32,000 nucleotides of DNA from contig NC_013849.1 in the NCBI RefSeq assembly GCF_000025505.1, positions 90,001 to 122,000 on the forward strand, in the 5' to 3' direction. Origin of the DNA: Ferroglobus placidus DSM 10642 (GTDB lineage Archaea; Halobacteriota; Archaeoglobi; Archaeoglobales; Archaeoglobaceae). Shown here piece after piece: positions 5,081-28,842 of the stretch; the first letter of the stretch is position 1, and each line of letters opens with the position of its first letter. The notes beneath the pieces were generated by a model. The model ran no database searches and was not told where the DNA came from. It saw only the letters and a program-made list of their open reading frames with translations. The translations under genes and the position numbers were made by a program.

Positions 5081-5110
5081 CTTTTTATTAACAACCTCTC
5101 TTCTCTCTTC

Positions 5111-13715: not shown

Positions 13716-14194
13716 TCTTTTCCCTCGAAAATTTTCTCAAGCTCTTCGGCAGCTAAATCGTATACTTTCGAGTGCTTTTTAACTCTTTCTGTAAACTTGA
13801 AAATCCACTCTTTCATTCTATTGAAAAATTCCTGATCGTCCGTTAAAGCTAAAAATTCGAGCTCAACGCTCACGTGATCTGGAGGTTCGCTTAAATAAGT
13901 ATATTTTAACCCCCTACTTTCGTAAATTTCCCTAACCTCGACTGTAGATTCTCCGTAAACGAGTCCCTCTCTGTAAAACGACTCGTAGGGATGACATTTG
14001 AGGGTTGGGTAGGAGCTTACGAAGAGTCTCGTATACTCCGTCTGGAGGTCTTTGAGACTCATCTTTGTTAATTCTTCGACGACATGGGAGTATTCGGGAA
14101 TTTCTTCCACAAGTTTTCTCATTTCATTTATAGTTTCTTCAGTTGGGAAGGAAAAAATGAGGGAAAAGAGTTTGAATATCTTTTGCCTCTTCAT
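13712..14194 (-). CDS. TorD/NarJ/DmsD-family molybdoenzyme maturation chaperone
   Basis: 160 aa with family hallmarks: EYTRLFV (E-x3-LF) and EPPDHVSVELEFL (EPxDH...L). Confidence 0.75.
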   Translation of the reverse strand: MKRQKIFKLFSLIFSFPTEETINEMRKLVEEIPEYSHVVEELTKMSLKDLQTEYTRLFVSSYPTLKCHPYESFYREGLVYGESTVEVREIYESRGLKYTYLSEPPDHVSVELEFLALTDDQEFFNRMKEWIFKFTERVKKHSKVYDLAAEELEKIFEGKE

Positions 14195-14195
14195 T

Positions 14196-15473
14196 TTATG
14201 CAGCCTCTGCTTTTTCGACCGGCAGCGCTTTTAGTAGGAAGAGAAGGATGAAGGAAATTACCGCAAAGACTCCGATCGTTATCGTTATCTCTACTGGAGA
14301 GGGCACGTAGTTCCAGTAGTCCACGAAAATTGGCTCTGGGTTCATCAGAGTTCCTCTCACCTCTCCTACCGCAATAGGATAAGCCCATTCGAAACTTTCG
14401 TAGCCGAGGATTACGGCAATTCTCGTCGGAATCAGGTTGTAGGCTGGAGGCATAAGCAAATATCTATGTGCCAATATTCCTAGATTTATTATCACGCTTC
14501 CGAAAACCAAGCCGGAGACCGAAGAATACCTCGTTGCCAAGATTATTATGCCAAGTATCAACAGGATCACTTCTGCTGCATGGATAGCCAAGTAGTCTCT
14601 GAAAACGAGCATCAGTGCATCGTACTCTTTCCCAGCCTCCCACCACCACCTCACGAGGAAGTCGTTGTAGTACATGAAAAGCAATCCAGCTGCTGATGCG
14701 GCTGAAACCTTGGCAAGCAATCTGTAAGTTTGTGCGAGTTCTTCTTTAAATCCGTAAACTATCAGCGAAGCCAAAATAACCACTGCAGGACCAGCTGTTA
14801 GCGCTGCAGCGATAAAAGTTGGAGCAAGTAATCCGCCGTACCACCAAGGTCTTGAAAGCTGAGTAGCTAAGACCCAAGCGGTGACCGTGTGGATGAGTAT
14901 GGCGAACGGCAAAGCTATTGGTGCGAGTATTTTTGCTTGTCTTTCCGAAGCTTCTCTTAGCCTTGCAAGCTCGTCAGCTTTCACGTCTCTTTTCATTATC
15001 GTTTTTCCGAATATCGTTATTCCTCTCTCAGCTATCCTCGGTCTGAGCTGGACGTAGGTGTAGATTGCTGAAAGGACAGCATAGGTTGAGAGAACGAGAA
15101 AGTCCCAAGGAAGCAGAGATTTGGGGTTGGGGTAGATAATGATGTTGAGGATTCTATCCGGTCTACCCAAGTCAGGCAAGACCATGAGCATTGCAGCGAC
15201 CGCAAATATAAATGCTGTTAGAGAAGCCACTGGCGCTATTGGTTTCAGCTGCTTGGCTCCGAAGATGTAGATTGCCGAAGATACGACAAGACCACCCGCT
15301 GCCGTACCGACGTAAAAAGCCCACATCGCTATGTAAAGACCCCAGCTGAACGGGTTTCTCATGTTTGTCACTATTAACCCCTTCTGGATCTGGTAGATCC
15401 AGGCGGCGAAGCCAATTATTGCAAGTATTCCGAGTATGAGCATCGCAAGATTATACTTCCTCATCAAACTCAC
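14196..15473 (-). CDS. NrfD/PsrC-type integral membrane quinol-interacting subunit of the molybdoenzyme
   Basis: 425-aa protein, highly hydrophobic with roughly 10 TM segments. Its position after the Fe-S subunit, with a 4-nt overlap, matches CISM NrfD-type anchors. Confidence 0.75.
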   Translation of the reverse strand: MSLMRKYNLAMLILGILAIIGFAAWIYQIQKGLIVTNMRNPFSWGLYIAMWAFYVGTAAGGLVVSSAIYIFGAKQLKPIAPVASLTAFIFAVAAMLMVLPDLGRPDRILNIIIYPNPKSLLPWDFLVLSTYAVLSAIYTYVQLRPRIAERGITIFGKTIMKRDVKADELARLREASERQAKILAPIALPFAILIHTVTAWVLATQLSRPWWYGGLLAPTFIAAALTAGPAVVILASLIVYGFKEELAQTYRLLAKVSAASAAGLLFMYYNDFLVRWWWEAGKEYDALMLVFRDYLAIHAAEVILLILGIIILATRYSSVSGLVFGSVIINLGILAHRYLLMPPAYNLIPTRIAVILGYESFEWAYPIAVGEVRGTLMNPEPIFVDYWNYVPSPVEITITIGVFAVISFILLFLLKALPVEKAEAA

Positions 15474-16225
15474 CCCTTAACCTCCTCCTTATAATCAACT
15501 TCTCCCCTCTTCGTTTTTCTGGCTGGAGGAATGTAGAAAACTTTAGGCTCAGTTCCGAGCTCCTCAAGCAATCTGAAAACTGATCTATCCCTCAAGATCT
15601 TCGAAATCTCGCTGTTCGGATCGTCTAAATCCCCGAAAACTCTCGCGTTGCCGGGACATCCCCTAACGCATGCGGGAGCAATTCCTTTGTCAACGAACTG
15701 AACGCAGAACGTGCACTTCTCCACCACTCCTCTCGGTCTCGTTTTGGTGTAAACAAGCCTGCCATCCTTGGTTCTGTGATCGAAAGGATATCCATGTTTG
15801 TAATCTTTGACAGCATACCAGTTCTCTTCAAACCCCGCTCTTTCGAAAGCTTGTTTGAAGTTCTCATCGGCATCCTGCCAGTTGAACTGCCTCACTCCGT
15901 AAGGGCAGGCTGTGATGCAGTATCTGCAACCTATGCACCTCTCGAAGTCCACCAAAACCAAGCCGTCCTCTCTCTTCCACGTCGCCCCTACTGGACAGAC
16001 TTTGACGCATGGAGCGTTTTCGCAGTGCATACACGGCACTGGAAGAAAAACTTCGGAAAGGTTTGGATATTCTCCCACTGGCACCATGTGCTCTTTCGAG
16101 CCTACTGTTTCAACTCTCTGCCACCATGTTCCCGGAGGGACGCTGTTCACCATTTTGCATATTACGGCACAGCTTCTGCAGCCTATACACCTGTTAAGGT
16201 CTATAACCATGCCGTACCTAACCAT
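15470..16225 (-). CDS. Four-cluster [4Fe-4S] electron-transfer subunit (PsrB/NrfC/DmsB-like)
   Basis: 251 aa with four Cys groups: CIGCRSCAVIC, CMHCENAPCVKVCP, CIGCRYCITACP and CTFCVQFVDKGIAPACVRGCP. A GGTGAG ribosome-binding site lies in the 10-nt gap after the catalytic-subunit gene. Confidence 0.9.
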   Translation of the reverse strand: MVRYGMVIDLNRCIGCRSCAVICKMVNSVPPGTWWQRVETVGSKEHMVPVGEYPNLSEVFLPVPCMHCENAPCVKVCPVGATWKREDGLVLVDFERCIGCRYCITACPYGVRQFNWQDADENFKQAFERAGFEENWYAVKDYKHGYPFDHRTKDGRLVYTKTRPRGVVEKCTFCVQFVDKGIAPACVRGCPGNARVFGDLDDPNSEISKILRDRSVFRLLEELGTEPKVFYIPPARKTKRGEVDYKEEVKG

Positions 16226-16235
16226 TTAACTCACC

Positions 16236-18932
16236 TCAAACCTTCCTGACATCGCAAGCTGTTTCGTTCCAGCACGTTGTCGGCTCCCATATTCCGGGAA
16301 CGAAGTAAGCTAAGTGAGTCGCTTTAACCCACGGGAACGTTAGCGTGTTATACGAAGCCCCTCTCAGATACCTGCTCCACCATCCCTGCTCGAAGATTAT
16401 GACTCGCGGATGGATTCCTGGATCGAGAACGGCATATCCGTAGACTTTTCCTCTGTCGTTGTAAACCTCCACGAGATCCCCCTCTTTGATGCCTTTCTCC
16501 TTCGCAGTTTCGGGATTCATCCATACTCTCGGTCTGAAGTCCTGTAACTCAAGCATCGTCAGGTTGTTGCTGTGGGTTGAGTGAACTCTGTAGAGAGCGT
16601 TTCTCGTCACGTAAGCGAATTTGTACTTGTTCTTAGCTTCTGGATTGACTTTGTACTCTGTGTCGACGAAGGGGTCTTTGTGAACTGGCAAAGTTTCTCC
16701 GAAGTCTATGAAAACGTCCTCTTCTTTGTAGAACTCAATTCTTCCACTCTTCACGAATCTGGCTGTCTTGGGGAGGGGCGCTGGATAAGATGGCGGAGGG
16801 AACGGCTTTTTCTCTTGAATCTGCTCCCAGAAGGGAATCTGTCTGTTGTTCGGGGCTGGAAGGTTTAGTCTAACTGCACCTTCTTTAAGAAGCCTTTCGA
16901 GGGTTATGTTCTTCGTGAACTCGTGCTTTCCGAGCATGAGCTCAGCAGCTTTCAGCGAAGCTTCGTTCGCTATTTCTCTAGCGAGCTTCAAGCTCCAGGT
17001 TCCGTTCTTTCTCGCTTCCTCTTCTCTTCTGAACAGCTCTGGATCTGGATAGAACTCTTCTATCTGTGCCTTAAGCTCTGGGTCGTCCCATCTTTCCACG
17101 AGTCTCTTCGCTATTTCTTTGAAAATCCATATCTCCGGCATGCACTCAAATAGCGGCTCTATGGCAGGTTGTTGAAGCTGCACGTAAGGGTGAAGTATCG
17201 TGGCGGTAAGTTCGTATTTCTCGTACCAAGCAACTCCTGGCAATACAACATCAGCCCACTTCGTTGATGTCGTCTGCTGGAAGTCTATGGCAACTATTAG
17301 TTCGAGCTCACCACTTTTAGCCATCTCTTTAAGCCTGTTAGCCATGTTATGCTGATCAAATGGGTTGTTCCATCCGAAAACGAAAGCTTTAACGTCGTTC
17401 TTCGGGTAAGGAGTTTCTCTGTTGTACTTCCTGAACTCTTCACTCTGCCTGTATTCTTTGTTTAACCAGAGCAAGAACGTAACCCAGTTTGGCTTTCTTC
17501 CCTTAAACGACCACCACATTCCAAGGGGCCATCTTATTTTGAACTGTCCGGCGTATGTGGAAATTCCAGCACCGGGCTTTCCTATGTTTCCGGTTAGAGC
17601 CACTATTAACGAGAGAGCTCTTCCCTTTAAGTCTCCGTGGAACCACTGGTAGTTGCTCGCTCCGTAGATAATGTGGAGGGGCTTTACCGTTCCCATCTCT
17701 CTGCCGAGTCTCTTAATTATCTCCACATACTCCTCCTTGCTTCTACCCGGTGGAGTTATGATCTCTGCAACTTTTTCCGGAGTGTAGTCTTTGTTCACGA
17801 GCTCTTTAACAAGCTGGAATACCGGTTTGACCTTAACTTTTCTCCCGTCAACGAGCTCTACTTCAAATTCACCCTCTAAAGCTGGTTCGAAATCTCTTTC
17901 GAGCGTCTCAGGATTCACTATTTTGAATCTCTTCTCCTTGACATCGTAAACAACGAAGAGATCTCTGTATTCCGGAATCTTCTCTTTCATTTTCTCAGCT
18001 TCGTCCTTAAGCTCTTTAATCTCGTAAGCTCTCAGTCTCTTCTGGTTATCAAGCCTCACAAGGAGCGGCAAATCCGTGTAGGTCTTTACGAAATCCTCGT
18101 CGTAGAGCTTCTCGTTTATTATGACGTTCACTATTCCGAGAGCTAAAGCAGCATCGGTAGATGGATTGATCTGAATCCACTCATCAGCTTTAGCGGCTGT
18201 TGGAGTGAAGTTCATATCTACCATGATTACTTTCGCTCCTCTCTCTTTGGCTATGCTCAGGAACTTTGCGTCTGGCAGCCTTGTAACGAGAATGTTTGAG
18301 CCGAAAATTGCTATGTACCTTGAATTCACCCACTCAAGCGACTCAAATTCTTCGGTTTGCACTCCGAAAGTTTGAGACCAGAAAGCCGGTAGATCTCCGT
18401 TCATCGTGTATCCGTGAAGAACGCTCCATCCAAACATCGAAGCAAGCCTTATTGCAGCTCCTTTGTGCACGTATCCGGTTCCTGGCACTTGTATCGATAA
18501 GGCAACGCTTTCCGGTCCGTATTTTTTCATAACTTCGGCAAGTTTGTCAGCCACGTAGTCCAAAGCTTCGTCCCAGCTAACGGCTTTAAACTTCCCTTCC
18601 CCTCTCTCCCCAACTCTTATGAGCGGTTTTTTGAGTCTGTCAGGTCCGTAGATGAGGTTGAGCATCGACTGCCCTTTCAAGCAACCTCTCGGATTGTATT
18701 CAGCCTCTGGATAATCCGCTGCCTGAATGAGCTGCACTATTCTCCCCTTGTAAACGTAGGCGTTGTAGGCACAAGCACCGGTGCAGTTCGGAGAACAAGT
18801 TGATCTGACGACTTTCAGCTCTTCGTCTCTTTTCTCCGCTGAAGTTGCAAGTTCGAAGTACTTGCTGCCGATTCCCGCTGATATCGCTGTTAAAGCGCAT
18901 ATTTTCACAAAATCCCTTCTCGTTACGTTCAT
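16236..18932 (-). CDS. Tat-exported bis-PGD molybdo/tungsto-enzyme catalytic subunit of the Nar-like (type II DMSO reductase) clade; candidate outward-facing nitrate/(per)chlorate reductase
   Basis: 898 aa with the Tat signal MNVTRRDFVKICALTA. The FS0 motif is C-SPN-C-TGA-C...PRGC (C-x3-C-x3-C-x(n)-C). Long stretches align by eye with E. coli NarG, including GDLPAFW...GSN (the NarG CDLPPAS Asp-ligand region) and VLPGVAWYEKYE (NarG ILPTATWYEKDD). Confidence 0.85.
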   Translation of the reverse strand: MNVTRRDFVKICALTAISAGIGSKYFELATSAEKRDEELKVVRSTCSPNCTGACAYNAYVYKGRIVQLIQAADYPEAEYNPRGCLKGQSMLNLIYGPDRLKKPLIRVGERGEGKFKAVSWDEALDYVADKLAEVMKKYGPESVALSIQVPGTGYVHKGAAIRLASMFGWSVLHGYTMNGDLPAFWSQTFGVQTEEFESLEWVNSRYIAIFGSNILVTRLPDAKFLSIAKERGAKVIMVDMNFTPTAAKADEWIQINPSTDAALALGIVNVIINEKLYDEDFVKTYTDLPLLVRLDNQKRLRAYEIKELKDEAEKMKEKIPEYRDLFVVYDVKEKRFKIVNPETLERDFEPALEGEFEVELVDGRKVKVKPVFQLVKELVNKDYTPEKVAEIITPPGRSKEEYVEIIKRLGREMGTVKPLHIIYGASNYQWFHGDLKGRALSLIVALTGNIGKPGAGISTYAGQFKIRWPLGMWWSFKGRKPNWVTFLLWLNKEYRQSEEFRKYNRETPYPKNDVKAFVFGWNNPFDQHNMANRLKEMAKSGELELIVAIDFQQTTSTKWADVVLPGVAWYEKYELTATILHPYVQLQQPAIEPLFECMPEIWIFKEIAKRLVERWDDPELKAQIEEFYPDPELFRREEEARKNGTWSLKLAREIANEASLKAAELMLGKHEFTKNITLERLLKEGAVRLNLPAPNNRQIPFWEQIQEKKPFPPPSYPAPLPKTARFVKSGRIEFYKEEDVFIDFGETLPVHKDPFVDTEYKVNPEAKNKYKFAYVTRNALYRVHSTHSNNLTMLELQDFRPRVWMNPETAKEKGIKEGDLVEVYNDRGKVYGYAVLDPGIHPRVIIFEQGWWSRYLRGASYNTLTFPWVKATHLAYFVPGIWEPTTCWNETACDVRKV

Positions 18933-18953
18933 TTGCGACCCCTCACCATTTAG

Positions 18954-18969
18954 CCCTAAACTTTTAGGG
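18954..18969. promoter_or_regulatory. Perfect palindrome CCCTAAA-CT-TTTAGGG, 21 nt upstream of the molybdoenzyme start codon; third copy of the CTAA-N4-TTAG box
   Basis: Read directly. The 12-nt core at 18956-18967 (CTAAACTTTTAG) matches the nos-region boxes (CTAAAATGTTAG) at 10 of 12 positions. Confidence 0.5.
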
Positions 18970-19171
18970 GTTTTTACGAAAAAAGTCGTATATCAGTATT
19001 TAAAATTTACGAAATTTCACGTATATTAAATAGCCAAGAACGTCCTCTGAAATGTTAATACGTGTGTAATCTTTAGTGTATAAAATATATTAAAATTAAT
19101 TTAAAATATGCTAAATAATCTGATAATAAGCTTAAATAAAATATTTTACAAAAAATAAAAATTTTAAATTT

Positions 19172-19564
19172 TTAGTCTGTTACGACTAAAACCCCTCTCA
19201 TTATCCAGTGTCCAAGTCCGGAGTTTGGATAAGGTTCTCCGCAGTAAATGTTACACCTTATTTCAAATGTACCGGTTTTGTTTGGAACAAACGTAACCTC
19301 TTTCCACTTCCCCGGCTCGACTATTTCGTTTATGCCGAAAGCAGCGATGTACAATCCGTGAGTGACATCGTCACTCGTGAATCTCAGCGTAACTTTTTCT
19401 CCTTTTTTCACTACAATTTTATTTGGCACGAACATCCACTGCTTTGCGTGCAGCTCTATTACGTTCTCTTCCTTAGCTTGGGATTTGTAGTACATTGGTC
19501 CTCCTATTATCGCCAGGACTCCGATTATTAGAAGGAGTAATGCTATGATGTCTCCGATCCTCAT
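19172..19564 (-). CDS. Membrane-anchored CuA-type cupredoxin (COX2-like domain) with expanded copper loop
   Basis: The true start is ATG 19562-19564 (MRIGDIIALLLLIIGVLAIIGG...). GGAGGTG lies 9 nt upstream, and there is an ATGA overlap with the upstream gene's stop. Ligand pattern: H69...C104-x3-C108-x10-H119-x2-M122. The longer ORF-track model (to 19888) overlaps the polyferredoxin gene. Confidence 0.75.
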   Translation of the reverse strand: MRIGDIIALLLLIIGVLAIIGGPMYYKSQAKEENVIELHAKQWMFVPNKIVVKKGEKVTLRFTSDDVTHGLYIAAFGINEIVEPGKWKEVTFVPNKTGTFEIRCNIYCGEPYPNSGLGHWIMRGVLVVTD

Positions 19565-21108
19565 AAGAACACACCTCCTCCGAGCCAGACGTGTATAACT
19601 ATCAAAGCGTAGCCCAATACCGCTGCCACTATTGGTATCGCTGCTCTTATCGCAGCTTTCTTGTCGTCGAACATTCTCAACGATATTTCGTGAGCTGCCC
19701 TCGTTGAGAAAACGACTCCAGCAACTATGAACGCCATCTGTATGTACGGAATTGCCCATGTGAAGTAGGGCTGCCATTTGAGATGAGCAGTCCCGAATAT
19801 GTCCCAGCCTAAGTTGAAGGGGTCTGAGAGAATTCTCAACACGTAGGAACCGTTGACGAGCAGGATGTAGATTGAGAAAGCTCCCCAAGCCATGAGGCTT
19901 ATTGGAACGAGGGCGTAGGAGAAGTTTATGAACACTCTCTTGAAGGACACATCCTTTCCGGAGAGCATCTTTGAGAGGTATGCGAAGGCTGCGAACAATG
20001 CTGGGGCTATGACGAGGGTTGAAACCAAGATTATCCCTAAGAATGTCAGGTAGTTCTGCAGCGAGAACGCTTCGATGAGTAGATTCGTCTTCTTGTCGAA
20101 GGGCACGTGAATTGCTTTACCGATTAACGGAGCAACTTTTCCGCCAAGAACGTTGGAGACTTCTCTCAACCATGGGTGTGCTCCTGCAAACACTATTGCA
20201 TAGAGGATAGCCAACGTAGCCATTATGAACGTCTTGTAAGCTTCGTCAAGCCCTCTCTTCTTTATTCCGTACCATGGATCCACGAATAGATCTTCTCCTC
20301 CTATTCTGAAGTTGACAGCTATGTTGTCGAAGGGACAAGTCTTGATACATTCGGTACACAAGCCGCAGTAGGCGTTTCTGTTTAAGTTCCCCGGATACTC
20401 GAACCACGGGCATCCATATCCTTTATCGTTTCCTCTTATACAATCCTTGTAGCCAACGTGCTTTATGCATGTCTCTCTGTTCTTCACTCTAAGCTCGAGG
20501 GTTGAAAACATCGAATACAGTCCGATGAATCCTGAAACCGGGCAGATGTACCTGCAGAACGCTCTTCCTCTGAATATCAGAAATACTATTATTGGTAGTA
20601 TTATGACAAGAATTATTAGCAAAATTCCTGAAACCCACGGTCTCGTGACGAGAATTCCTATGAAGCTTGAGACCATTAGGAATGAGGCGTTCTGTATCCA
20701 GATGTTGTCGAACTTCTTTGGCCATCTTTTTCCAAGTCCTATGGGTTTGTGTCTAACTCCGACAAACGTTCCTCGCTGAATCCACTCTCCCAACGCCGGA
20801 ATAGGGCAGACTTGACACCATATCCTTCCTCCGAAGGGGACGAGAACGAGCATCAGCGCTGCCCACCAAACAATCCACATTATCAGAATCGCCAAGTTGC
20901 TGTTACCCACTGGACTTCCGAAAAAGGCTGCATACATCAAAGCGACGAAGATTAAGAAGTTCGGGAATATCGCTATGAACTGATACGCTCGCAATTTGAA
21001 TAGCCATCGGATTATCGGAATTCTGAGCAGGTCGTATCTAAAGAAGTACTTCGCCTCTTCCTTAGCTGTTGCATCCTTAACCTCTTCACCAACTTCCGCC
21101 AACTTCAC
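19561..21108 (-). CDS. NosR/NapH-family integral membrane iron-sulfur protein (polyferredoxin) with extra C-terminal multi-TM domain
   Basis: 515 aa. CxxCP/Cx3CP motifs follow TM helices (WCQVCPIPALGEW, FCRYICPVSGF). It also has a ferredoxin motif (CGLCTECIKTCP) and a partial Cys group (C-x9-C-x9-CP). It lacks the N-terminal FMN-binding domain of NosR. The GTG start at 21108 comes immediately after AGGAGGTGA. Confidence 0.7.
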   Translation of the reverse strand: MKLAEVGEEVKDATAKEEAKYFFRYDLLRIPIIRWLFKLRAYQFIAIFPNFLIFVALMYAAFFGSPVGNSNLAILIMWIVWWAALMLVLVPFGGRIWCQVCPIPALGEWIQRGTFVGVRHKPIGLGKRWPKKFDNIWIQNASFLMVSSFIGILVTRPWVSGILLIILVIILPIIVFLIFRGRAFCRYICPVSGFIGLYSMFSTLELRVKNRETCIKHVGYKDCIRGNDKGYGCPWFEYPGNLNRNAYCGLCTECIKTCPFDNIAVNFRIGGEDLFVDPWYGIKKRGLDEAYKTFIMATLAILYAIVFAGAHPWLREVSNVLGGKVAPLIGKAIHVPFDKKTNLLIEAFSLQNYLTFLGIILVSTLVIAPALFAAFAYLSKMLSGKDVSFKRVFINFSYALVPISLMAWGAFSIYILLVNGSYVLRILSDPFNLGWDIFGTAHLKWQPYFTWAIPYIQMAFIVAGVVFSTRAAHEISLRMFDDKKAAIRAAIPIVAAVLGYALIVIHVWLGGGVFL

Positions 21109-21567
21109 TCACCTCCTTGCTATATAATATCCCGTCACAGCTATTCCGAGAATTATTGCAAAAAGAGAGACTCCTCTCTCTGGATTGTTCGGTTTCACTA
21201 TCAGCTTCCCTGTCATGAATGGATGGTAGGGTCCGCAGGTAACGTTGCACCTGTACGTGAAAACTCCCGGTTTATCTGCTACGAACTTTATCACTCTCTC
21301 CCTCGGCCAACCTTCTTTTGTTATTATCGCTGTACCTATGTCGTAACCTTCAATGAAAAGACCGTGGGATACATCAGCAGATTTCAATCGTATGATAACT
21401 GTGTCTCCTTGGTTTACCTCTATCACTGAAGGTTCGTACTCCCATTGTTTTGCAATTACCGTGAACTCCTTTGTCGTACCTTTTGGACTCGTGTTCTGAG
21501 CACTGGATATAGTCAGCACTGAAATTCCCAGCACCACCAGCGCAAGCAGAATTACTCCTGCTCTCAT
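21109..21567 (-). CDS. Exported, C-terminally membrane-anchored CuA-type cupredoxin (COX2-like domain)
   Basis: 152 aa with the signal MRAGVILLALVVLGISVLTISSA and the C-terminal TM segment GVSLFAIILGIAVTGYYIARR. It has a canonical CuA pattern: H68 (SHGLFIEG)...C107-x3-C111-x3-H115-x2-M118 (YRCNVTCGPYHPFM). By eye it aligns with ba3-oxidase subunit II. Confidence 0.8.
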   Translation of the reverse strand: MRAGVILLALVVLGISVLTISSAQNTSPKGTTKEFTVIAKQWEYEPSVIEVNQGDTVIIRLKSADVSHGLFIEGYDIGTAIITKEGWPRERVIKFVADKPGVFTYRCNVTCGPYHPFMTGKLIVKPNNPERGVSLFAIILGIAVTGYYIARR

Positions 21568-21626
21568 CTCAACACCACCGTTTATTTTCTTACAATTTTG
21601 CTCTAATATCTGTAAAAAACTAACAC

Positions 21627-21638
21627 CTAAAATGTTAG
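21627..21638. promoter_or_regulatory. CTAAAATGTTAG box, 7 nt from a TTTTTTA element oriented toward the cupredoxin operon
   Basis: The core is at 21627-21638. The A6 run at 21614-21619 is T6 on the minus strand. A GGTGGTG ribosome-binding site and ATG 21567 lie downstream on the minus strand. Confidence 0.5.
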
Positions 21639-21885
21639 GAGTCTTAGGCGATCTAAAATTTTTTGATATTATAATAATGTTATATCCTTTAGAGTATAGC
21701 TGAAGTCAATGTTGTTGATACTCTAATCTGAAAAATATTGGTGTCATCTTTTTTAATTCTTGTTAATCGATGCTACTAAGAATTTTTAGCTCTTTTTAGC
21801 ATAACAATCATTATGACGATTTTTGAAGTAGCGGGAATAGATTAATTTTTTAGGGAGCGCAACCAAAATTGCTGGTTTTCAACCA

Positions 21886-21897
21886 CTAAAATGTTAG
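21886..21897. promoter_or_regulatory. CTAAAATGTTAG box, 7 nt upstream of a TTTTTTAT element (probable TATA box) of the nosZ promoter
   Basis: The core is at 21886-21897 and T6A at 21905-21911. The GGTGA ribosome-binding site is at 21948-21952 and ATG at 21958. The 13-mer CTAAAATGTTAGG is identical to the copy at 21627-21639. Confidence 0.5.
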
Positions 21898-21945
21898 GGT
21901 ATCATTTTTTATTGTTACATTCGTTAATTCAATATATAACTGGTT

Positions 21946-24039
21946 TTGGTGATGGGAATGGCGGAGGAGAAGAATGCGAAAAAGAACAACAAGAGAAACA
22001 ATAAAAACGGGGAGACTAAATTAACAAGAAGAGAATTTCTTAGCTTCGGAGGAGGTTTTATCGCTGGATTTGCCGTTGGAGCTGGAATTTCGAGGCTTGG
22101 TGGAGGAGGAGCACCAGCAGCTCCAGCCTCTTTTGCTGAAATAATGGAGCAGAGAGGGTTGACGCAGCAGGATGCTATTGCCGCTTTAAAAACCTACACT
22201 CCCGGAGGAAAGTACGACGAGTTCATAATGTTTGCCTCTGGAGGACATTCTGGGCAGGTGCTCGTAATCGGAGTTCCGAGCATGAGATTGTACAAAGTAA
22301 TAGCCGTATTCACCCCAGAGCCTTGGCAGGGATACGGATATGGACTGAAGGAAACCCATGAAGTTCTTAAAGGAGGGTATAACGGAATTCGCCCATTGAG
22401 CTGGGGAGACACTCATCATCCTGAAATCAGCAGAACCAATGCTGAGTTTGACGGAGAATGGCTGTTTATTAACGATAAAGCAAACGGCAGAGCTGCTGTT
22501 ATAAGCCTCAAGGACTTCGAGACGAAACAAATAGTAAAAGTTCCGAACACTCAAACAGTCCACGGAGGGTGCTTTGCCACTCCAAATACTGAATACGTTG
22601 CAATTGTCAGCCAATATGCAACCCCATGGGATCCTGAAAAAGGAGGATACATCCCCGGAGAAACGTATGTTGAGTTGACTGAGGAGAACTACAAGAAGTA
22701 CTTCAGAGGAACTTACACGTTTTTGGCTTTCGACAGAAAGAGGGGAAGATTCGACCTATCAAAGAGCTTCCAGATAGAGCTTCCTCCGTACACGCAGGAT
22801 CTTGTAGCTGTAGGATGGGGTCCGAGCGATGGTTTGGCTTTCTGCAACTCTTTCAACACCGAGTTGGCTGTTGGAGGTGTCTTAAAAGGAAAACCTCCAC
22901 TTGAGATTGGAATGTCCCAGAACGATTTCGACTATCTTCACGTAATTCTGTGGAAGAAGGCTGAGCAGTACGTTAAGGAAGGAGGAGGAGAAGTGATAAA
23001 CGGGATAAGAGTAATAAGGTTGAAGGAGGCTGTTAAGGAGGGGCTGATTTACTTTGTTCCCGAACCAAAAAGCCCCCACGGATGTGATATAACGCCGAAC
23101 GGAGATTACGTTTGTGTCAGTGGAAAGCTCGATCCCGTTGTGACAGTCTATAGCGTGGAGAAGATAAAAAGGGCTATCGAAGAGAAGAAGTTCGAAAAGA
23201 AAGATCCCTACGGTGTTCCAGTTTTGAAGTTTGACGAAGTTGTTGAGGCTCAGATAGAGGTTGGTTTAGGTCCTCTCCACACAGAATTCGACGATAAAGG
23301 CTATGCTTACACAAGCCTCTTCATAGACAACGCTGTAGCAAGATGGAAGCTTGGTCCACCCTACAACGAAGATGGATGGAAAGTTGTTGAAAGAATTCCC
23401 ATAAACTACAACGTTGGACATCTGGCAACTCCGGAGAGTAACTCTCCGACGCCAAAAGGAAAGTATCTCGTTTCCCTAAACAAGTGGTCGATCGAAAGAT
23501 TCCCGCTTGTCGGTCCACTGCATCCGCAGAACTTCCAGTTAATTGACATAAGTGGGGAGAGAATGCAGCTCCTTTACGACATGCCCATAGGACTTGGTGA
23601 ACCTCACTATGCGAAGATAATCAGCATCGAGAAACTTAAGCCACTCGATGTTTACCCAGCTGGAACTGACCCGCTTACCTTCCAGCCACATCCGAAGGCA
23701 ATACAGCAGGGACAGGAGAGAATTGAGAGAAAGCAGGAGAACGGAAAGTGGGTTACTGAGATTTATGCTACATTAATCAGAAGTACCATAACTCCTGACA
23801 TAATGAAAGCCAAAGTGGGAGACATCGTGAGAATTTATCTGACGAACGTTGAATACACGAGAGATGCAACACATGGATTCTGTATCGCAGAGTACAACAT
23901 AAACGCGAGTCTTGAGCCGGGAGAGACTGGAACGATAGAGTTCGTTGCGGACAAGCCAGGAGTTTATGCGATCTACTGTACGGAGTTCTGTTCACCACTC
24001 CACCTGGAAATGGCCGGTTGGTTAGTAATTGAACCATAA
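21946..24039 (+). CDS. nosZ: Nitrous-oxide reductase NosZ (Tat-type signal)
   Basis: It has the twin-arginine motif LTRREFLSF (RR codons at 22027-22032) and the CuZ-region DTHHP (22408-22422). The C-terminal CuA site is HGFCIAEY...C-TEF-C-SPL-H-LE-M (23977-24012). The likely true start is ATG 21958, preceded by GGTGA; the ORF-track start is TTG 21946. Confidence 0.95.
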   Translation: MVMGMAEEKNAKKNNKRNNKNGETKLTRREFLSFGGGFIAGFAVGAGISRLGGGGAPAAPASFAEIMEQRGLTQQDAIAALKTYTPGGKYDEFIMFASGGHSGQVLVIGVPSMRLYKVIAVFTPEPWQGYGYGLKETHEVLKGGYNGIRPLSWGDTHHPEISRTNAEFDGEWLFINDKANGRAAVISLKDFETKQIVKVPNTQTVHGGCFATPNTEYVAIVSQYATPWDPEKGGYIPGETYVELTEENYKKYFRGTYTFLAFDRKRGRFDLSKSFQIELPPYTQDLVAVGWGPSDGLAFCNSFNTELAVGGVLKGKPPLEIGMSQNDFDYLHVILWKKAEQYVKEGGGEVINGIRVIRLKEAVKEGLIYFVPEPKSPHGCDITPNGDYVCVSGKLDPVVTVYSVEKIKRAIEEKKFEKKDPYGVPVLKFDEVVEAQIEVGLGPLHTEFDDKGYAYTSLFIDNAVARWKLGPPYNEDGWKVVERIPINYNVGHLATPESNSPTPKGKYLVSLNKWSIERFPLVGPLHPQNFQLIDISGERMQLLYDMPIGLGEPHYAKIISIEKLKPLDVYPAGTDPLTFQPHPKAIQQGQERIERKQENGKWVTEIYATLIRSTITPDIMKAKVGDIVRIYLTNVEYTRDATHGFCIAEYNINASLEPGETGTIEFVADKPGVYAIYCTEFCSPLHLEMAGWLVIEP

Positions 24040-24090: not shown

Positions 24091-24594
24091 ATGAGATCTC
24101 TCATGGCACTTTCGTTTGCTCTCGTGCTAGTAGCACTGATAATTGCCGGATGCTCTGAGGAGAAACCTCCGGAAATTCAGCTCGGAGTTGACAAATGCGA
24201 CATGTGTGGGATGATAATAAGTGAGAAAAATTACGCTGGGCTTTACTACTCTACCAAAGAGAAAAGGTGGAAGAAGTTCGACGATATTGGATGTTTGGTA
24301 ATGGAAGCTAAAAAAGAGGGGGATGCGAAAGCTGGAACAATCTACGTTTTTGACTACGAAACTGGGGAATTGATAAAAGCTGAAAAAGCCTACTACGTCG
24401 TTTCTCGGGACATATGGACACCGATGAACACCGGAATAATTGCTTTCAAAAGCAAGGAAAAAGCTGAGGAAACAGCGAAAAAGCAAGGAGGAAAGGTTAT
24501 GAGCTTTGAGGAGCTAATGAAGATGGAGATGAAAATGGGTTGGATGGGCGGAAGGAGAAGTGAACGAACCTCTATGAGCCATACCGGGAAATGA
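24091..24594 (+). CDS. nosL: NosL copper-chaperone lipoprotein with Met-rich C-terminal tail
   Basis: 167 aa with a lipobox-like LIIAG-C21 and the NosL hallmark DKCDMCGM. The tail has 7 Met between residues 137 and 162. Confidence 0.8.
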   Translation: MRSLMALSFALVLVALIIAGCSEEKPPEIQLGVDKCDMCGMIISEKNYAGLYYSTKEKRWKKFDDIGCLVMEAKKEGDAKAGTIYVFDYETGELIKAEKAYYVVSRDIWTPMNTGIIAFKSKEKAEETAKKQGGKVMSFEELMKMEMKMGWMGGRRSERTSMSHTGK

Positions 24595-24603
24595 GGTGGT
24601 AAA

Positions 24604-25185
24604 ATGGATAAAAAAAGAGTGAAAAAAGCTGTGGCAGCTGCTTTAATAATCCTTGCAACGTTTTCCCCAATCTGGACGATGAAACTCAACGCACCGCTTT
24701 ACGGAAAAAAATGGCTTCACGTAACGCTGTATAGCTACAAGGTGGAGGGGGATATTAAAGAAGTAAATATCGTAAACCATTACGTAGGTTTGAGGGAGAT
24801 AAATCCGGAGGAGATGATAGAGTTAAAAGTTGCCCCAATAATCTTCGGAATTCTCGACGTTCTTTCGTTGATAGGAGTGGCGGTGAGCAGCGAGAGATTC
24901 GAAAAGTTCTTCTGGATTGTACTTGTGCTCACAGCTATAGGCATTCCAGCTTACTTGCAGTACTGGCTTTACAACTACGGACACGATTTGAATCCCAAAG
25001 CTGCAGTTGAAATAGAGCCGTTTACACCTCCGGTTATAACGATTACTCCAAACAAGGTTGGCAATTTCAGAACAATAAGCTACTTGGACATTGGCTACTG
25101 GATGATCGTAGCAGCTATGCTTCTTTATTTGCCGGATGGTGTGGTAAGAAAACTCAGAAAATCGAGGGCGACGGAGAATGCTTAA
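24604..25185 (+). CDS. Four-TM membrane protein of unknown function embedded in the nos cluster (NosB-like by position only)
   Basis: 193-aa ORF with a GAGGTGGT ribosome-binding site upstream and an 8-nt overlap with the nosD start. It has four hydrophobic segments. I recognise no catalytic motif. Confidence 0.6.
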   Translation: MDKKRVKKAVAAALIILATFSPIWTMKLNAPLYGKKWLHVTLYSYKVEGDIKEVNIVNHYVGLREINPEEMIELKVAPIIFGILDVLSLIGVAVSSERFEKFFWIVLVLTAIGIPAYLQYWLYNYGHDLNPKAAVEIEPFTPPVITITPNKVGNFRTISYLDIGYWMIVAAMLLYLPDGVVRKLRKSRATENA

Positions 25186-26548
25186 AATTACAAATATTTT
25201 ATTTTTAATTTTAATATTTTTAATTCTCATTGGAGTTGCTTCGGGAGAAATCTACTACGCTTCACCAGCCAATATAACTCAGGTGCTTGAAAAAGCTCGT
25301 GATGGAGATACGATATATTTGTTGGAAGGTTATTATAAAGGAGGAATTGTTCTCAACAAGAGTATTTCTCTCATCGGCGTAAACTACCCGGTTATAGATG
25401 CTATGGGTGGGGTTTACGGGATATTAATTGAGGCAAACAACTGCACGGTGGAGAAGGTAAAAATAATTAACACGTCAACATCGAGAAGTCTTCAGCCGGC
25501 TGGAATAGTACTTCGATCAGATTATAATATTATAAGAAACGTAGTTATGGAGAACGTTTACTACGGAATTCTGCCTCAAGAGGCTGATTATAATATAATA
25601 GAAGACTGCTACTTGGTTGGCTTGAGAGATGTGGACATTAATTATAGGGGGGACGGTATCTACCTCTGGAACTCCAGATACAACATAATAAGGAACGTTA
25701 CGATGCTTTACTTCCAAGATGGAATTTACAGCGAACATTCGTACTTCAACAAGTTGATTAACAACACCGTCGCTTATTCACGCTACGCTGTCCACAACAT
25801 GTACTGCACAGATTATTTAATCGACGGCATGGTTTCTTTGCAAAACATAGCTGGTTATGTGATAATGTATTCAGCAAATGTCACTGTTAGAAACAGCATA
25901 GCTGAGGTAAATTGGAGGAGTGCTGTCGGAGAGGGAATCTTTGTAATTGAAACTGACAACGTCCTAATTGAAAACAACACCGTCTATGCTGGTATATACG
26001 GAATGGAGATCAAGAGAACACCCTACAGACCGGGGCACTATGCTATAGTAAGGTGGAACACCATAGTCTACAATCAGGTCGGAATCTCAGTAGATGAGGA
26101 AAGTAGCGTGATTTTTTACGGAAACAATTTCATAGAAAATGTGGACAACATCGAGGCGATAGGAGATATAGGGAGAAAGATGAAGTGGTACAGCGAGGAG
26201 CTTAAAGTGGGGAATTTCTGGGATACATATGCTGGATTCGATAAAAATAAAGACGGAATTGGAGATATTCCCTATGTGGAGAGGAGTTTTGCCGAACATA
26301 TCATCGACAGCTACCCAACCCTTAGAATATTCATGTACACTCCCGCATATCAGGCTTTGGAGACTATGTCAAAGATATTCCCGATAAATCCGAAAATTAG
26401 TGTTTACGATCCTTATCCCTTAATGAAACCGAATGTCAATCTGAACTATAAAGAGAAAAACGTGAATGCTCAAATGTTATTTACTTCAGTCCTTCTCGTA
26501 TCGGCATCTGTGATAATTATTTGGAGGTATGGTTATGGCGGTTATTGA
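25178..26548 (+). CDS. nosD: NosD, right-handed beta-helix copper-site maturation protein, with N-terminal signal and C-terminal TM anchor
   Basis: 456 aa. The N-terminal region ANITQVLEKARDGDTIYLLEGYYKGGIVLNKSISLIG and repeated N-x-[IV] beta-helix turns (IIRNV, LINNT, IENNT, GNNFIEN) fit NosD. The C-terminal hydrophobic segment is LFTSVLLVSASVIIIW. Confidence 0.85.
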   Translation: MLKITNILFLILIFLILIGVASGEIYYASPANITQVLEKARDGDTIYLLEGYYKGGIVLNKSISLIGVNYPVIDAMGGVYGILIEANNCTVEKVKIINTSTSRSLQPAGIVLRSDYNIIRNVVMENVYYGILPQEADYNIIEDCYLVGLRDVDINYRGDGIYLWNSRYNIIRNVTMLYFQDGIYSEHSYFNKLINNTVAYSRYAVHNMYCTDYLIDGMVSLQNIAGYVIMYSANVTVRNSIAEVNWRSAVGEGIFVIETDNVLIENNTVYAGIYGMEIKRTPYRPGHYAIVRWNTIVYNQVGISVDEESSVIFYGNNFIENVDNIEAIGDIGRKMKWYSEELKVGNFWDTYAGFDKNKDGIGDIPYVERSFAEHIIDSYPTLRIFMYTPAYQALETMSKIFPINPKISVYDPYPLMKPNVNLNYKEKNVNAQMLFTSVLLVSASVIIIWRYGYGGY

Positions 26549-27353
26549 AATTGAGGAGGTTTACAAGGAGTATGAAGGATTCGTTGCGTTGAAAGGAATC
26601 ACTCTCTCAATAAAGAAGGGGTTAACGTTGCTGCTCGGACCCAACGGAGCTGGAAAGACCACGCTTTTGAAATGCATCGTCGGGCTGCTGAACTTCGAAG
26701 GAGAAATTCGGATCATGGGTTATGACGTTTTAAGAGAAGCGGTGAAAGCGAAAAATTTCCTCGGCTATCTCCCTCAAAAAGTTTCCATCTACGAAAATAT
26801 GAAATGCTATGAAATTGTGAAATTCTTTTCTGAGTTGAGAAAAATAGATCTGGATGTTGAAGAGGTTTTGAAATTAGCGGAGCTTGAAGAGGAGTATCAT
26901 TCTAAGTTCGGGGAGCTTTCTGGAGGAATGAGGCAGAGGTTTGCTCTTGCGTTACTCCTTGCTTCTGATCTTCCAGTTCTAATACTCGACGAGCCCATGA
27001 GTAACTTAGACCCAATGGGGAGAAGGAGGTTTGAGGGAATGCTGAGGGAGCTGAAATCTGATAAAACGATACTCGTTAGCTCTCACTCTCTTGGCAGTTT
27101 GTTACCTTACGCTGATAGAGTAGTGGTTATGAACGAGGGAGAAGTTGTTTTCGATGGAGAACTTGATCAATTCTTATCTATGCTTGATGAGAAATTCAAG
27201 GCTCACGTTAAAACGAGCGAAGGATGGTTTACGATAACCGCAAAAACGTTCGAGGAGTTCATGGACAGCATAGATGGTAGAATGGTAGAGGAGGTTATTT
27301 TTGAGGAGATACCGATTGATCAGCTTATAGCGAAGATAAGCGGAGGTGAGTGA
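26529..27353 (+). CDS. nosF: NosF ABC-transporter ATPase
   Basis: It has Walker A (GPNGAGKTT), the signature LSGGMRQRFALA, and Walker B (LILDEP). Spacing from GGAGGT (26523-26528) favours ATG 26535 as the start. Confidence 0.9.
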   Translation: MVMAVIEIEEVYKEYEGFVALKGITLSIKKGLTLLLGPNGAGKTTLLKCIVGLLNFEGEIRIMGYDVLREAVKAKNFLGYLPQKVSIYENMKCYEIVKFFSELRKIDLDVEEVLKLAELEEEYHSKFGELSGGMRQRFALALLLASDLPVLILDEPMSNLDPMGRRRFEGMLRELKSDKTILVSSHSLGSLLPYADRVVVMNEGEVVFDGELDQFLSMLDEKFKAHVKTSEGWFTITAKTFEEFMDSIDGRMVEEVIFEEIPIDQLIAKISGGE

Positions 27354-28164
27354 CTTGTTCATTTTAATTAAAAAGGAGCTTTCAGACTCTTTGAGAAACA
27401 AGTGGCTTACTTCTTATGCTGTGATGTACATGCTAATAGCTCTTGGTTTATCCTACTTCTCCCTCCTCGGCATAAGTGGTCTTGGATTGAAAGCTTTGGG
27501 AAGAATCACAGCAAGCTTGATTAATCTCACGATATTTTTGACGCCGCTCGCATCTCTGATGCTTGGGGCTACAAGCATAGTCAGTGAAAGAGAAGCGGGA
27601 TCGCTGGAGTGGCTACTCTCTCAGCCGGTGAGCAGAAGATCCGTAATACTTGGCAAGTTCTTGGGATTAACTTTGGCTATTTCCATTGCAACAGCTTTAG
27701 GATACGGATTTGCCGGACTATTTCTATCGATGCAGCTCCCTTCCGAAGATCTGCCGAAGTATCTGGGCTTAATACTCATATCCTCAGCTTTAGCGGCTGT
27801 CGGAGTTGCTATAGGAATCTTCGTCTCCATAACCTCCCGAGGTAGATTTGAGGCTCTGGCAACCTCACTTTTGCTTTGGCTGACTTGGGTCATAATCTAC
27901 GACCTCCTTGTCATGGGAGCGAGCATAGCTTTTGGATTGACATATCTAACGATTTTCCTTCTCCTCGTTTTAAATCCAGTAGAAAGCTCAAGGCTTTTAA
28001 TGGCGTACATAATAGACCCGACTCTGAGCTTTCTCGGCTTAACTGGGATGCTTGCTGCAAGAGAAATCGAAAACTTACCGCTGTTCTTGGCAAGCGTCGT
28101 CTTTGCGTGGTGTTTGCTGCCTTTAATAGCCTCGTTCAAACTCTTTGAGAAGAAAGACGTGTGA
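27346..28164 (+). CDS. nosY: NosY ABC-2-type permease
   Basis: 272-aa protein with 6 TM segments, overlapping the nosF stop. An alternative start is TTG 27355, downstream of GGAGGTGAG. Confidence 0.85.
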   Translation: MSDLFILIKKELSDSLRNKWLTSYAVMYMLIALGLSYFSLLGISGLGLKALGRITASLINLTIFLTPLASLMLGATSIVSEREAGSLEWLLSQPVSRRSVILGKFLGLTLAISIATALGYGFAGLFLSMQLPSEDLPKYLGLILISSALAAVGVAIGIFVSITSRGRFEALATSLLLWLTWVIIYDLLVMGASIAFGLTYLTIFLLLVLNPVESSRLLMAYIIDPTLSFLGLTGMLAAREIENLPLFLASVVFAWCLLPLIASFKLFEKKDV

Positions 28165-28170
28165 TCGAAT

Positions 28171-28842
28171 ATGCCGGGGATGAAGGAAGTTGTGATCAAG
28201 ATGAAAATGACCCCCCACACTTGGGTTAGAAAGATAATATCAGAGGATCCGCTTCAAGTGAGAATTCTCGACTGCAGATCTATTCAAGGAAAAGATGGTG
28301 TGATAGAGCTATTTGAAATTAGAACGGAAGGTAAGAATGTTGATAAGATAATCGAGAAGCTGAAGAAATGCAGCGAAATTTACGACTTGGAAATTCTCGA
28401 TAAAGATTACAGGAGAGGAGAAATCGTAGGGACGCTCAAAACAACTCATTGTGACGTTTGCAAGCATTTCACACACTTACCGGACTGCTTTCTCGGTTCT
28501 GCAGATTACGAGCTGAAAGATGGCTACGTTTACTGGAAACTACTTTTAACTAACGAAGATTTGAAGCTTTTACTCAAAAAGTTCGAAGAGATGGGAGTGG
28601 AGATAGAAATAGAGGAGATGTCAAGCTATGAACATCATGAAGACTCTCTGACGGTGAAGCAGGAGCAGATAGTCAAGCTCGCTTGGGAAATGGGATACTT
28701 CGACACTCCAAGGAAGATAAGTCTCAAGAAACTATCAGAAATTCTTGGCATATCCACACCAACCCTTTCGGAAATTCTGAGGAGGGGTTTGAGAAAAATT
28801 GTGAAGGACTATTTTGAGAAGGTAAGTAGGAGGAAGAGGTAA
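28171..28842 (+). CDS. HTH_10 (Bat/NarO/DmsR-type) transcriptional regulator with N-terminal Cys/His cluster
   Basis: The C-terminal LTVKQEQIVKLAWEMGYFDTPRKISLKKLSEILGISTPTLSEILRRGLRKIV is the HTH_10 pattern. The N-domain has H93-C94-x2-C97-x-H99-x2-H102-x3-C106 (28447-28488). It starts 6 nt after nosY. Confidence 0.8.
   Translation: MPGMKEVVIKMKMTPHTWVRKIISEDPLQVRILDCRSIQGKDGVIELFEIRTEGKNVDKIIEKLKKCSEIYDLEILDKDYRRGEIVGTLKTTHCDVCKHFTHLPDCFLGSADYELKDGYVYWKLLLTNEDLKLLLKKFEEMGVEIEIEEMSSYEHHEDSLTVKQEQIVKLAWEMGYFDTPRKISLKKLSEILGISTPTLSEILRRGLRKIVKDYFEKVSRRKR

Follow-up and report, generated by a model that had tools for sequence, protein, structure and literature searches.

What controls the divergent promoters of the nitrous-oxide reductase (nos) cluster of the archaeon Ferroglobus placidus DSM 10642? 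We addressed this question in a window of 32,000 nucleotides (nt) of contig NC_013849.1 (forward strand, positions 90,001 to 122,000; coordinates below are positions within the window), in which a spacer separates nosZ from an oppositely oriented operon that begins with a cupredoxin gene. An earlier examination of the letters of this DNA (the sequence-only reading) had drawn attention to two identical 13-nt boxes that stand in mirror image beside T6A elements in the spacer. Our comparative analysis of these boxes, and of a third copy elsewhere in the window, suggests that they are operators for a homodimeric factor of the HTH_10 family, most probably the protein encoded at 28171-28842, which would activate both divergent nos promoters and probably repress an operon for a molybdenum (Mo) oxidoreductase. 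We assign this proposal, which is drawn from sequence comparison, a probability of roughly 0.72.

Reading the region from 21400 to 22100 showed that the 13-mer CTAAAATGTTAGG occurs twice on the plus strand, at 21627-21639 and 21886-21898, with its CTAA-N4-TTAG core at 21627-21638 and 21886-21897. Read from 21626, the left copy extends to a 5-4-5 palindrome, CCTAA-AATG-TTAGG; the right copy reads ACTAAAATGTTAGGG. Each core is separated by 7 nt from an A/T run on the side of the gene it faces, the left core from A6 (21614-21619; gap 21620-21626) and the right core from T6AT (21905-21912; gap 21898-21904). The mirror symmetry extends to the start codons, as the T6A element lies 52 nt from the ATG of the cupredoxin gene (21567, minus strand) and 53 nt from that of nosZ (21958, plus strand), the start of the core lies 71 and 72 nt from the same codons, and a Shine-Dalgarno sequence of the GGTG type occurs between the T-run and the start codon on both sides. 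A second in-frame ATG at 21952 is not kept in L001, a contig from a close relative, where the start corresponds to 21958. All coordinates of the sequence-only reading were borne out, including the identical 13-mers with their 4-4-4 palindromic core, the mirrored 7-nt spacing to T6A, and the pairs GGTGA with ATG 21958 on the right and GGTGGTG with ATG 21567 on the left. The elements of the two promoters are the following.

21573 to 21579, minus strand: GGTGGTG, Shine-Dalgarno sequence of the cupredoxin gene.
21612 to 21619, minus strand: TTTTTTAC, putative TATA box of the cupredoxin operon, kept in L001 and resembling other TATA-like elements of the window.
21626 to 21639, no strand assigned: left box CCTAAAATGTTAGG, a 5-4-5 palindrome, proposed operator of the cupredoxin-operon promoter, identical in L001.
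21886 to 21899, no strand assigned: right box CTAAAATGTTAGGG, proposed operator of the nosZ promoter, identical in L001-L003.
21905 to 21912, plus strand: TTTTTTAT, putative TATA box of the nos operon, kept in L001.
21948 to 21952, plus strand: GGTGA, Shine-Dalgarno sequence of nosZ.

Across the window, the 13-mer with up to two mismatches had 6 matches where 1.13 were expected (1 of 100 shuffles reached 6), CTAA-N4-TTAG had 4 where 0.77 were expected (none of 100 shuffles reached 4), and an exact 13-nt repeat inside the 378-nt spacer was reached by 6 of 1000 shuffles. The excess was most pronounced in intergenic DNA, which makes up ~4% of the window (1335 base pairs, 67.5% A+T). Three cores were observed there against 0.04 expected, and none of 2000 dinucleotide-preserving shuffles of that DNA reached three. 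Because of this excess we do not regard the pair of boxes as a product of chance, and the concern raised by the sequence-only reading, that the motif might be equally frequent throughout AT-rich intergenic DNA, does not apply within the window. All sites with at most one mismatch from CCTAA-N4-TTAGG were intergenic, with none in the 30.6 kb of coding sequence. The fourth match to CTAA-N4-TTAG, CTAAGTAATTAG at 12889-12900, spans the abutting stop codons of convergent genes for an ABC ATPase and a solute-binding protein, and was regarded as a chance occurrence.

The boxes are also conserved in a close relative of Ferroglobus that is represented by the metagenomic contigs L001-L003, which have the same gene order as the window (regulator 97% and NosZ 94% identical). 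In an alignment of the divergent spacer with L001, both promoter blocks were ~97% identical and began a few bases outside each box, only six bases outside in the case of nosZ, while the central 150-180 nt fell to ~50% identity. Boxes and T6A elements have thus been kept as blocks, as the sequence-only reading had proposed to check in relatives with nos clusters. This pattern bears on the explanation that the boxes have no regulatory role and represent a chance match, what is left of a duplication, or inverted repeats at the ends of a small mobile element. The arms at 21613-21638 and 21886-21911 do constitute a 26-nt inverted repeat (73% complementarity) flanking 247 nt, and a partial copy of the nosZ promoter half is found at 21732-21755 (71% identity). 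However, conserved ends around a diverged interior are the opposite of what a mobile element should leave, no other copy occurs in the window, the boxes are single at equivalent promoters in other genomes, and chance is at odds with the intergenic shuffles described above. We therefore consider this explanation very improbable. That the boxes are binding sites for a transcription factor is, judging from these sequence data, very likely.

The spacer has further features of lesser clarity. The block adjoining the left box (21640-21705) is ~80% conserved with L001 and holds a half-site-like CTAAAAT (21653-21659) together with TTTTTTGATATTATAATA; an auxiliary site or a second promoter could reside there. 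On the nosZ side, the similar sequence TTTTTTAGGG (21845-21854) is conserved as well, although its spacings are asymmetric relative to those of the left block. The segment AAAATATTGGTGTCATCTTTTTTA at 21732-21755 resembles the proximal half of the nosZ box with its T6A element, but only its T5AATT part is kept in L001, and it may be a decayed promoter duplicate. An Rfam scan of the spacers returned nothing at E <= 1, and a check of the spacers for small open reading frames (ORFs) found only trivial ones of 23-37 amino acids.

A pattern search of the window revealed a third site that the sequence-only reading had overlooked and that is the best copy of the box, a perfect 7-2-7 palindrome in front of the Mo-oxidoreductase operon.

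18954 to 18969, no strand assigned: third box CCCTAAACTTTTAGGG, flanked by an A/T-rich TATA region (18970-18984) on one side and by the Mo-oxidoreductase gene's Shine-Dalgarno sequence on the other, conserved in L001.
13712 to 18932, minus strand: molybdopterin oxidoreductase operon of four genes.

The operon encodes an alpha subunit of the type II dimethyl sulfoxide (DMSO) reductase family, an Fe-S subunit, an NrfD-type membrane subunit, and a NarJ/TorD-like chaperone, and the alpha subunit bears an N-terminal twin-arginine (Tat) signal, MNVTRRDFVK. The A/T-rich region contains T6 at 18979-18984 and TAAAAA at 18971-18976, and the Shine-Dalgarno sequence is at 18939-18947. From this order of sequence elements, the third box must lie downstream of the TATA box or inside the 5' leader of the operon. 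The box is kept in L001, yet its spacer is 90% identical overall and hence less informative than that of the nos promoters. We considered whether the palindrome could be a terminator and rejected this, as the T-run is present on the plus strand only, where no gene ends.

Position relative to the core promoter is meaningful for several archaeal regulators. For SurR, TrmBL1/Tgr, and Ptr2, sites upstream of the B recognition element (BRE) and TATA box are typically activating, and those downstream of the TATA box are repressing. By the rule known from SurR and TrmBL1/Tgr, the location of the third box downstream of the TATA box is a repressing one, and for that reason we predict repression of the Mo operon; taken by itself, this part of the proposal is tentative, and we would put it somewhat below even odds. 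By analogy, the same rule would allow the nos sites and the Mo-operon site to be explained by one protein, although the protein families and motifs of SurR, TrmBL1/Tgr, and Ptr2 differ from the regulator and box considered here.

The geometry of the nos promoters depends on which element is the TATA box. Elements of the T5-6A type are usual at promoters of the window, which is why we take T6A to be the local type of TATA sequence. Elsewhere in the window, TTTTTAAT, TTTTTATT, TTTATAGC or TATTAATA is centred 26-28 nt before a start codon that has no Shine-Dalgarno sequence, which suggests that those genes give leaderless mRNAs. The larger distance from T6A to ATG at the nos promoters, together with their Shine-Dalgarno sequences, fits a leader of ~22-25 nt. 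From these sequence features, T6A is probably the TATA box of the nos promoters. With a TATA box centred near -27, the centre of the box would be located near -43/-44, and its proximal half-site would abut the BRE. There is a second TATA-like element before nosZ, AATATATAA at 21931-21939, and were this the real nosZ TATA box, T6A would be the A-tract of an extended bent site and the box a distal activating site near -70. The element is a good TATA-like sequence that is kept in L001, and other genes of the window have TATA elements near the start codon. Its centre, however, is ~22 nt from ATG 21958 versus the ~26-28 nt of the leaderless promoters, with a Shine-Dalgarno sequence in between; the cupredoxin side has no equivalent element; and unrelated lineages show the same succession of box, short spacer, and A/T run. 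We consider this arrangement unlikely. At 5076-5090, a CCTAAC half-site immediately adjoins TTTTTATT, which is likely to be the TATA box of tatC (start codon GTG 5111). The half-site may link Tat export to the regulon, as L004 has a full box before tatA, or may be chance.

Variants of the box also precede nosZ in archaea more distant than the relative discussed above, which extends the conservation that the sequence-only reading had suggested examining. The promoters compared were as follows.

L004 (Ca. Pyrohabitans; regulator 56% identical and last in the nos operon): before nosZ, CCCTAACATATTAAGGG, then ttaat, then TATATAAAAAAAA.
L004: before tatA, CCTTAATATATTAAGG.
L097 (NosZ 71% identical): before nosZ, CCCTAACTCCTTAGGG.
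L098 (NosZ 69% identical): before nosZ, CCCTAACGAATGAGGG.
L093 (NosZ 66% identical): before nosZ, ACCTTACATGTAAGGT.
L099/L092 (NosZ 68% identical; divergent gene order as in the window): an 11-4-11 palindrome, CTTTACCCGAATATATTCGGGTAAAG, between the two promoters, then GA-TTTTTAT.
L095 (NosZ 51% identical; 69% GC, bacterial-looking): no box.

The palindrome CTTTACCCGAATATATTCGGGTAAAG is found where the cupredoxin and nosZ genes diverge, at 2425-2450 in L092 and at 9930-9955 in L099, and this single box seems to serve both promoters, where Ferroglobus has two. The L099 counterpart of the right box with its T6A element reads TTCGGG-TAAAGA-TTTTTAT. Of the 18 promoters that we listed, 14 have an A/T-rich run whose start is 1-8 nt beyond the core. 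The distance between the centre of the core and the start codon is 44-83 nt at 14 of the 18 and 120-156 nt at three more, for which the start codons are uncertain; the exception is the third box of the window, at 29.5 nt from the ATG. In L098, a further inverted repeat, CGAATGAGGG-N12-CCCTCATTCG (about 9935-9975), overlaps the nosZ box CCCTAACGAATGAGGG; the repeat is also present in L096.

The candidate for the box-binding protein is encoded at the end of the nos operon.

28171 to 28842, plus strand: HTH_10 regulator of 223 amino acids, candidate box-binding protein, starting 6 nt after nosY.

Its HTH_10 domain is C-terminal (PF04967, E = 2.8e-19, residues 160-212), and an alignment of 11 family members showed four invariant cysteines, C35 in an ILDC motif and C94-X2-C97-X8-C106. 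Pfam found only HTH_10 and a weak Sigma70_r4 match in the protein, with no cNMP-binding or Crp domain, and NCBIfam reported no family. The AlphaFold model was of moderate confidence (pLDDT 74, below 50 in the cysteine loop at 102-109), and a Foldseek search of the Protein Data Bank with this model gave no informative match, the only one being Thermoplasma acidophilum Ta1207 at a TM score of 0.46.

We compared 80 homologues of the regulator from GTDB species representatives, with 803 kb of surrounding DNA, using a strict form of the box, CC[TG]AA-N4-TT[AC]GG. This form occurred 44 times in the 803 kb versus 2.75 in shuffles, and 25 of the 44 occurrences were within 200 nt of a regulator gene, a 29-fold higher density, at 23 of the 80 loci. 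The box-bearing loci are spread over Bathyarchaeia, Nitrososphaerota, and further phyla, and the regulators they encode share only 25-43% identity with that of the window. Usually a hybrid box, CCCTAAC-NN-GTTCGGG, is upstream of the regulator gene and a perfect one, CCTAAC-NN-GTTAGGG, is downstream of it, before the next gene. Hybrid (CTAA..TTCG) and CGAA boxes occur in low-GC non-halophiles as well, and on sequence the CTAA, hybrid, and CGAA boxes are best seen as one family, CC-K-AAC-NN-GTT-M-GG, whose enrichment beside regulator homologues includes Pyrohabitans. In six lineages (L007, L012, L014, L015, L019, L055) the box precedes a NirK-cupredoxin fusion, identified in L007 by TIGR02376 (322 bits against a cutoff of 296) and in the other five by Pfam multicopper-oxidase and Copper-bind domains, and in L021 it precedes a Mo enzyme of 1122 amino acids with a Tat signal. 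The regulator itself is the last gene of the nos operon in the window, L001, L004, and L099, and adjoins nirK in six lineages.

Based on this association, it is likely that the adjacent regulator binds the boxes of the window, as the sequence-only reading had suspected for the product of 28171-28842; the presence of the box family beside its homologues in distant archaeal phyla, before nirK, nosZ, nor-like, and Mo-enzyme genes, speaks for that candidate. Alternatively, another factor encoded elsewhere in the genome, either an HTH_10 paralogue or a member of an unrelated family, binds the boxes and the adjacent regulator has other targets. Ferroglobus and other Archaeoglobales do carry several HTH_10 paralogues (L049, L057, L061, L063), and L099 has two, placed tail to tail with different recognition helices (16313-17622). 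The one with the helix STIVEALRAS ends the nos operon, whose promoter has a CGAA box, and the one with STLTETLRRG is beside a nor-like (COX1) operon with a promoter box of the CTAA type, CCCTAAAATTTTAGGG (19854-19869). This pair hinted at a recognition code, but when SEILRRG was compared with VEALRAS, SETLHRA, and TEHLSAA against the T/G base, no general rule emerged over 30 loci, and proteins of the SEILRRG type were found beside CGAA and hybrid boxes too. The 29-fold density beside this particular four-cysteine (Cys4) subfamily, across phyla and target genes, and the embedding of the regulator in nos operons in three lineages argue against a factor from elsewhere, which we regard as improbable. 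In L099, a 6-3-6 palindrome, CCTAATTTTATTAGG, was also observed 20 nt beyond CCCTAAAATTTTAGGG.

A precedent for the box exists in haloarchaea. The nar, nir, nor, and nos promoters of Haloferax mediterranei contain the semi-palindrome CGAAYATDKTYG, at distances of 79 nt (nir), 66 nt (nor), and 69 nt (nos) before the start codon; its mutation lowers the activity of the nos and nor promoters, and it is needed for full activity (Miralles-Robledillo et al., PMC10062603). The regulator NarO is reported to be required for activation of denitrification genes (PMC10062603, PMC11218638) and to repress dms (PMC10062603). NarO and DmsR are Bat-like helix-turn-helix regulators without PAS or GAF domains, and a helix-turn-helix regulator is encoded inside the nirK-nor cluster of H. 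mediterranei (PMC11218638). Both the Haloferax motif and the box of the window are 4-N4-4 inverted repeats before nosZ that match at 9 of 12 positions, and their distances to the start are the same (66-79 nt for the motif, 71-72 nt for the Ferroglobus cores). Tested against the published consensus, CTAAAATGTTAG matches 9 of the 12 positions of CGAAYATDKTYG, with positions 2, 5, and 11 outside it, so that the box is a sequence variant rather than a literal member; at the symmetric positions 2 and 11 the box has T/A where the haloarchaeal motif has G/C (CGAA-N4-TTCG). The two also differ in that Ferroglobus is a non-halophile of the hyperthermophilic order Archaeoglobales, and in that its two divergent promoters each have a copy of the box, in mirror image. 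The nirK-nor clusters on plasmids of Halogeometricum and Halomarina (L088, L089) have 5-7 CCGAAC-NN-GTTCGG boxes each, identical to the box family of the window in their outer CC/GG flanks and AAC-NN-GTT core. These clusters encode full-length homologues of the regulator that are ~25% identical to it and have no cysteine motif. Upstream of narO itself, on pHV3, CGAATCCGTTCG is centred ~44 nt from the ATG with AATATTT 6 nt further, a short spacer followed by a TATA-like element as at the boxes of the window.

The regulators can be compared in a similar manner. H. volcanii NarO (211 amino acids) and the regulator of the window (223) both have a C-terminal HTH_10 domain, which is similar between them by BLAST (E = 8e-10 over 54 residues) and hhalign (97.7% probability over 58 columns), and NarO is likewise encoded beside genes for N-oxide respiration. 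NarO reportedly has an N-terminal four-cysteine motif, CXnCXCX7C, and the annotated NarO sequence, which reads RCACELIEGHGC, is in agreement with it. In a joint alignment, CX2CX8C of the regulator (C-X2-C-X7/8-C in its family) falls on CXCX7C of NarO, but the spacing differs and the N-terminal similarity is not significant; the fourth cysteine of the regulator is in the ILDC motif, where NarO has the pattern CXnCXCX7C. The protein that binds the haloarchaeal motif may be NarO or a cysteine-less HTH_10 protein of the nirK-nor clusters, both of which we regard as candidates. In the literature searched, no link between NarO-type regulators and non-halophilic archaea was found. The haloarchaeal precedent makes the pair of box and regulator less novel than the sequence-only reading had supposed. 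At the same time, the mutagenised haloarchaeal motif and the block conservation in L001 both support that reading's view of a dimeric regulator controlling nosZ and the cupredoxin operon together.

We propose that the boxes function as follows. On each nos box, the half-site nearer the promoter is 7 nt upstream of the T6A element that we take to be the TATA box, so that a bound dimer would cover the BRE or sit immediately before it and would help to recruit TFB and TBP. To the right, this would switch on nosZLDFY and the regulator gene; to the left, it would switch on the cupredoxin/polyferredoxin operon for electron delivery. The sensor is probably a metal or Fe-S centre that is bound by the four invariant cysteines and responds to redox state or an N-oxide, and from the third box the same protein would repress the Mo-oxidoreductase operon. 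As the regulator gene belongs to the nos operon, such control would form a positive feedback loop. The genes concerned are listed below.

21109 to 21567, minus strand: cupredoxin (CuA-like), first gene of the divergent operon; Pfam Cupredoxin_1, resembling the C-terminal domains of NosZ and COX2.
19561 to 21108, minus strand: polyferredoxin-type membrane protein (Fer4_5; NosR/NapH-like, without FMN-binding domain), in the same gene order in L001 and L099.
19172 to 19564, minus strand: second cupredoxin/COX2-like gene, last of the divergent operon.
21958 to 24039, plus strand: nosZ, nitrous-oxide reductase (TIGR04246, 786 bits against a cutoff of 625).
24091 to 28164, plus strand: nosL, an ORF of 193 amino acids of unknown function, nosD, nosF, and nosY, co-oriented with short gaps or overlaps.

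The start of the second cupredoxin gene near 19564 was set by analogy with the gene of 130 amino acids called in L001, and its longest ORF reaches 19888. The products of this operon plausibly deliver electrons to NosZ.

The sign of regulation at the nos promoters deserves separate consideration, since a protein situated so near the BRE and TATA box could repress. In that case, a protein beside or over the BRE would block TFB and TBP at both nos promoters until an inducing signal arrived. The core is only 7 nt from T6A, with the GG flank nearer still, so that the footprint probably covers the BRE; the third site is in the classical position of a repressor; and NarO is reported to repress dms. 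Against this, mutation of the haloarchaeal motif lowers rather than raises the activity of the nos and nor promoters (PMC10062603), NarO is described as needed for activation of denitrification genes, and sites upstream of the BRE and TATA box are, as noted, typical of activation by SurR, TrmBL1/Tgr, and Ptr2. We consider repression of the nos promoters unlikely; activation by the bound protein, as far as sequence allows, is reasonably likely. The two reported roles of NarO, activator and repressor, match the two geometries of the box in the window.

Other results, in addition to the second TATA-like element before nosZ, weigh against the proposal that a Cys4-HTH_10 dimer acts at these boxes. 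A strict box was absent within 200 nt at 57 of the 80 homologue loci, and a group of homologues in Thermoplasmatota is without any shared palindrome. A variant palindrome was sought for these box-less homologues of Thermoplasmatota and Methanomassiliicoccales, and no shared 5-N4-5 palindrome was found. Because the helix-to-base rule failed, the assignment of this paralogue to the boxes rests on adjacency. Lastly, detectable homology to NarO is confined to the HTH_10 domain; BLAST and hhalign gave no significant alignment of the N-terminal domains.

The arrangement invites comparison with bacteria, in which denitrification is controlled by FNR, DNR, NNR, and NnrR of the FNR/CRP family at a site, TTGAT-N4-ATCAA, centred at -41.5. 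FNR is a dimeric sensor with four cysteines that hold an Fe-S cluster, and its 5-N4-5 palindrome is ~40-45 base pairs upstream of nir, nor, and nos transcription starts. The likeness is one of functional analogy only. The folds are unrelated, as the regulator of the window belongs to Pfam HTH_10 and has no cNMP-binding or Crp domain, and FNR/CRP proteins work with sigma-70, whereas the promoters of the window are archaeal (TBP/TFB).

To our knowledge, the regulation of archaeal denitrification is known in outline and from haloarchaea only, with one genetically studied regulator (NarO) and one mutagenised motif, and we know of no demonstration of the protein that binds this motif. Our data extend the pair of box and regulator, previously known from haloarchaea only, across many archaeal groups, including NirK-bearing Bathyarchaeia and Nitrososphaerota that are relevant to environmental N2O and nitrite turnover. 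We speculate that the NarO box belongs, as one of its branches, to an ancient regulon for N-oxide respiration common to the archaea, composed of a Cys4-HTH_10 sensor and the operator CC-K-AAC-NN-GTT-M-GG with activation or repression determined by position, a possibility that we hold with less than even confidence. If true, the regulon would cover nirK, nor, nosZ, Tat components, and type II Mo-oxidoreductases, and would span Archaeoglobi, Pyrohabitans, Bathyarchaeia, Nitrososphaerota, and Halobacteria. In Ferroglobus, the dimer would then turn on the reduction of N2O and, at the same time, turn off a Mo-dependent reductase that competes with this step or precedes it. The locus is a compact test case that combines three sites in two geometries with a single adjacent candidate protein, and is a candidate natural example of one archaeal factor that activates or represses by position. 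The box family, in turn, could be searched for in uncultured archaea to predict their N-oxide regulons.

During these analyses we noted several other features of the window. MtrH and DUF2193 mark it as archaeal, and the closest reference was a metagenome-assembled genome of Ferroglobus sp. (regulator 97% identical). NosZ scores as the 'Sec-dependent' clade II type in NCBIfam, yet its N-terminus bears a twin-arginine motif, TRREFL (KLTRREFLSFGGG), and tatC is present in the same window (5111-5821). Directly behind a permease-Usp fusion gene of full length (1271-3493) comes an ORF of 281 amino acids (3542-4387) whose match to the amino-acid permease model, which has 427 positions, is confined to positions 14-303; this ORF may be a pseudogene or a truncated paralogue.

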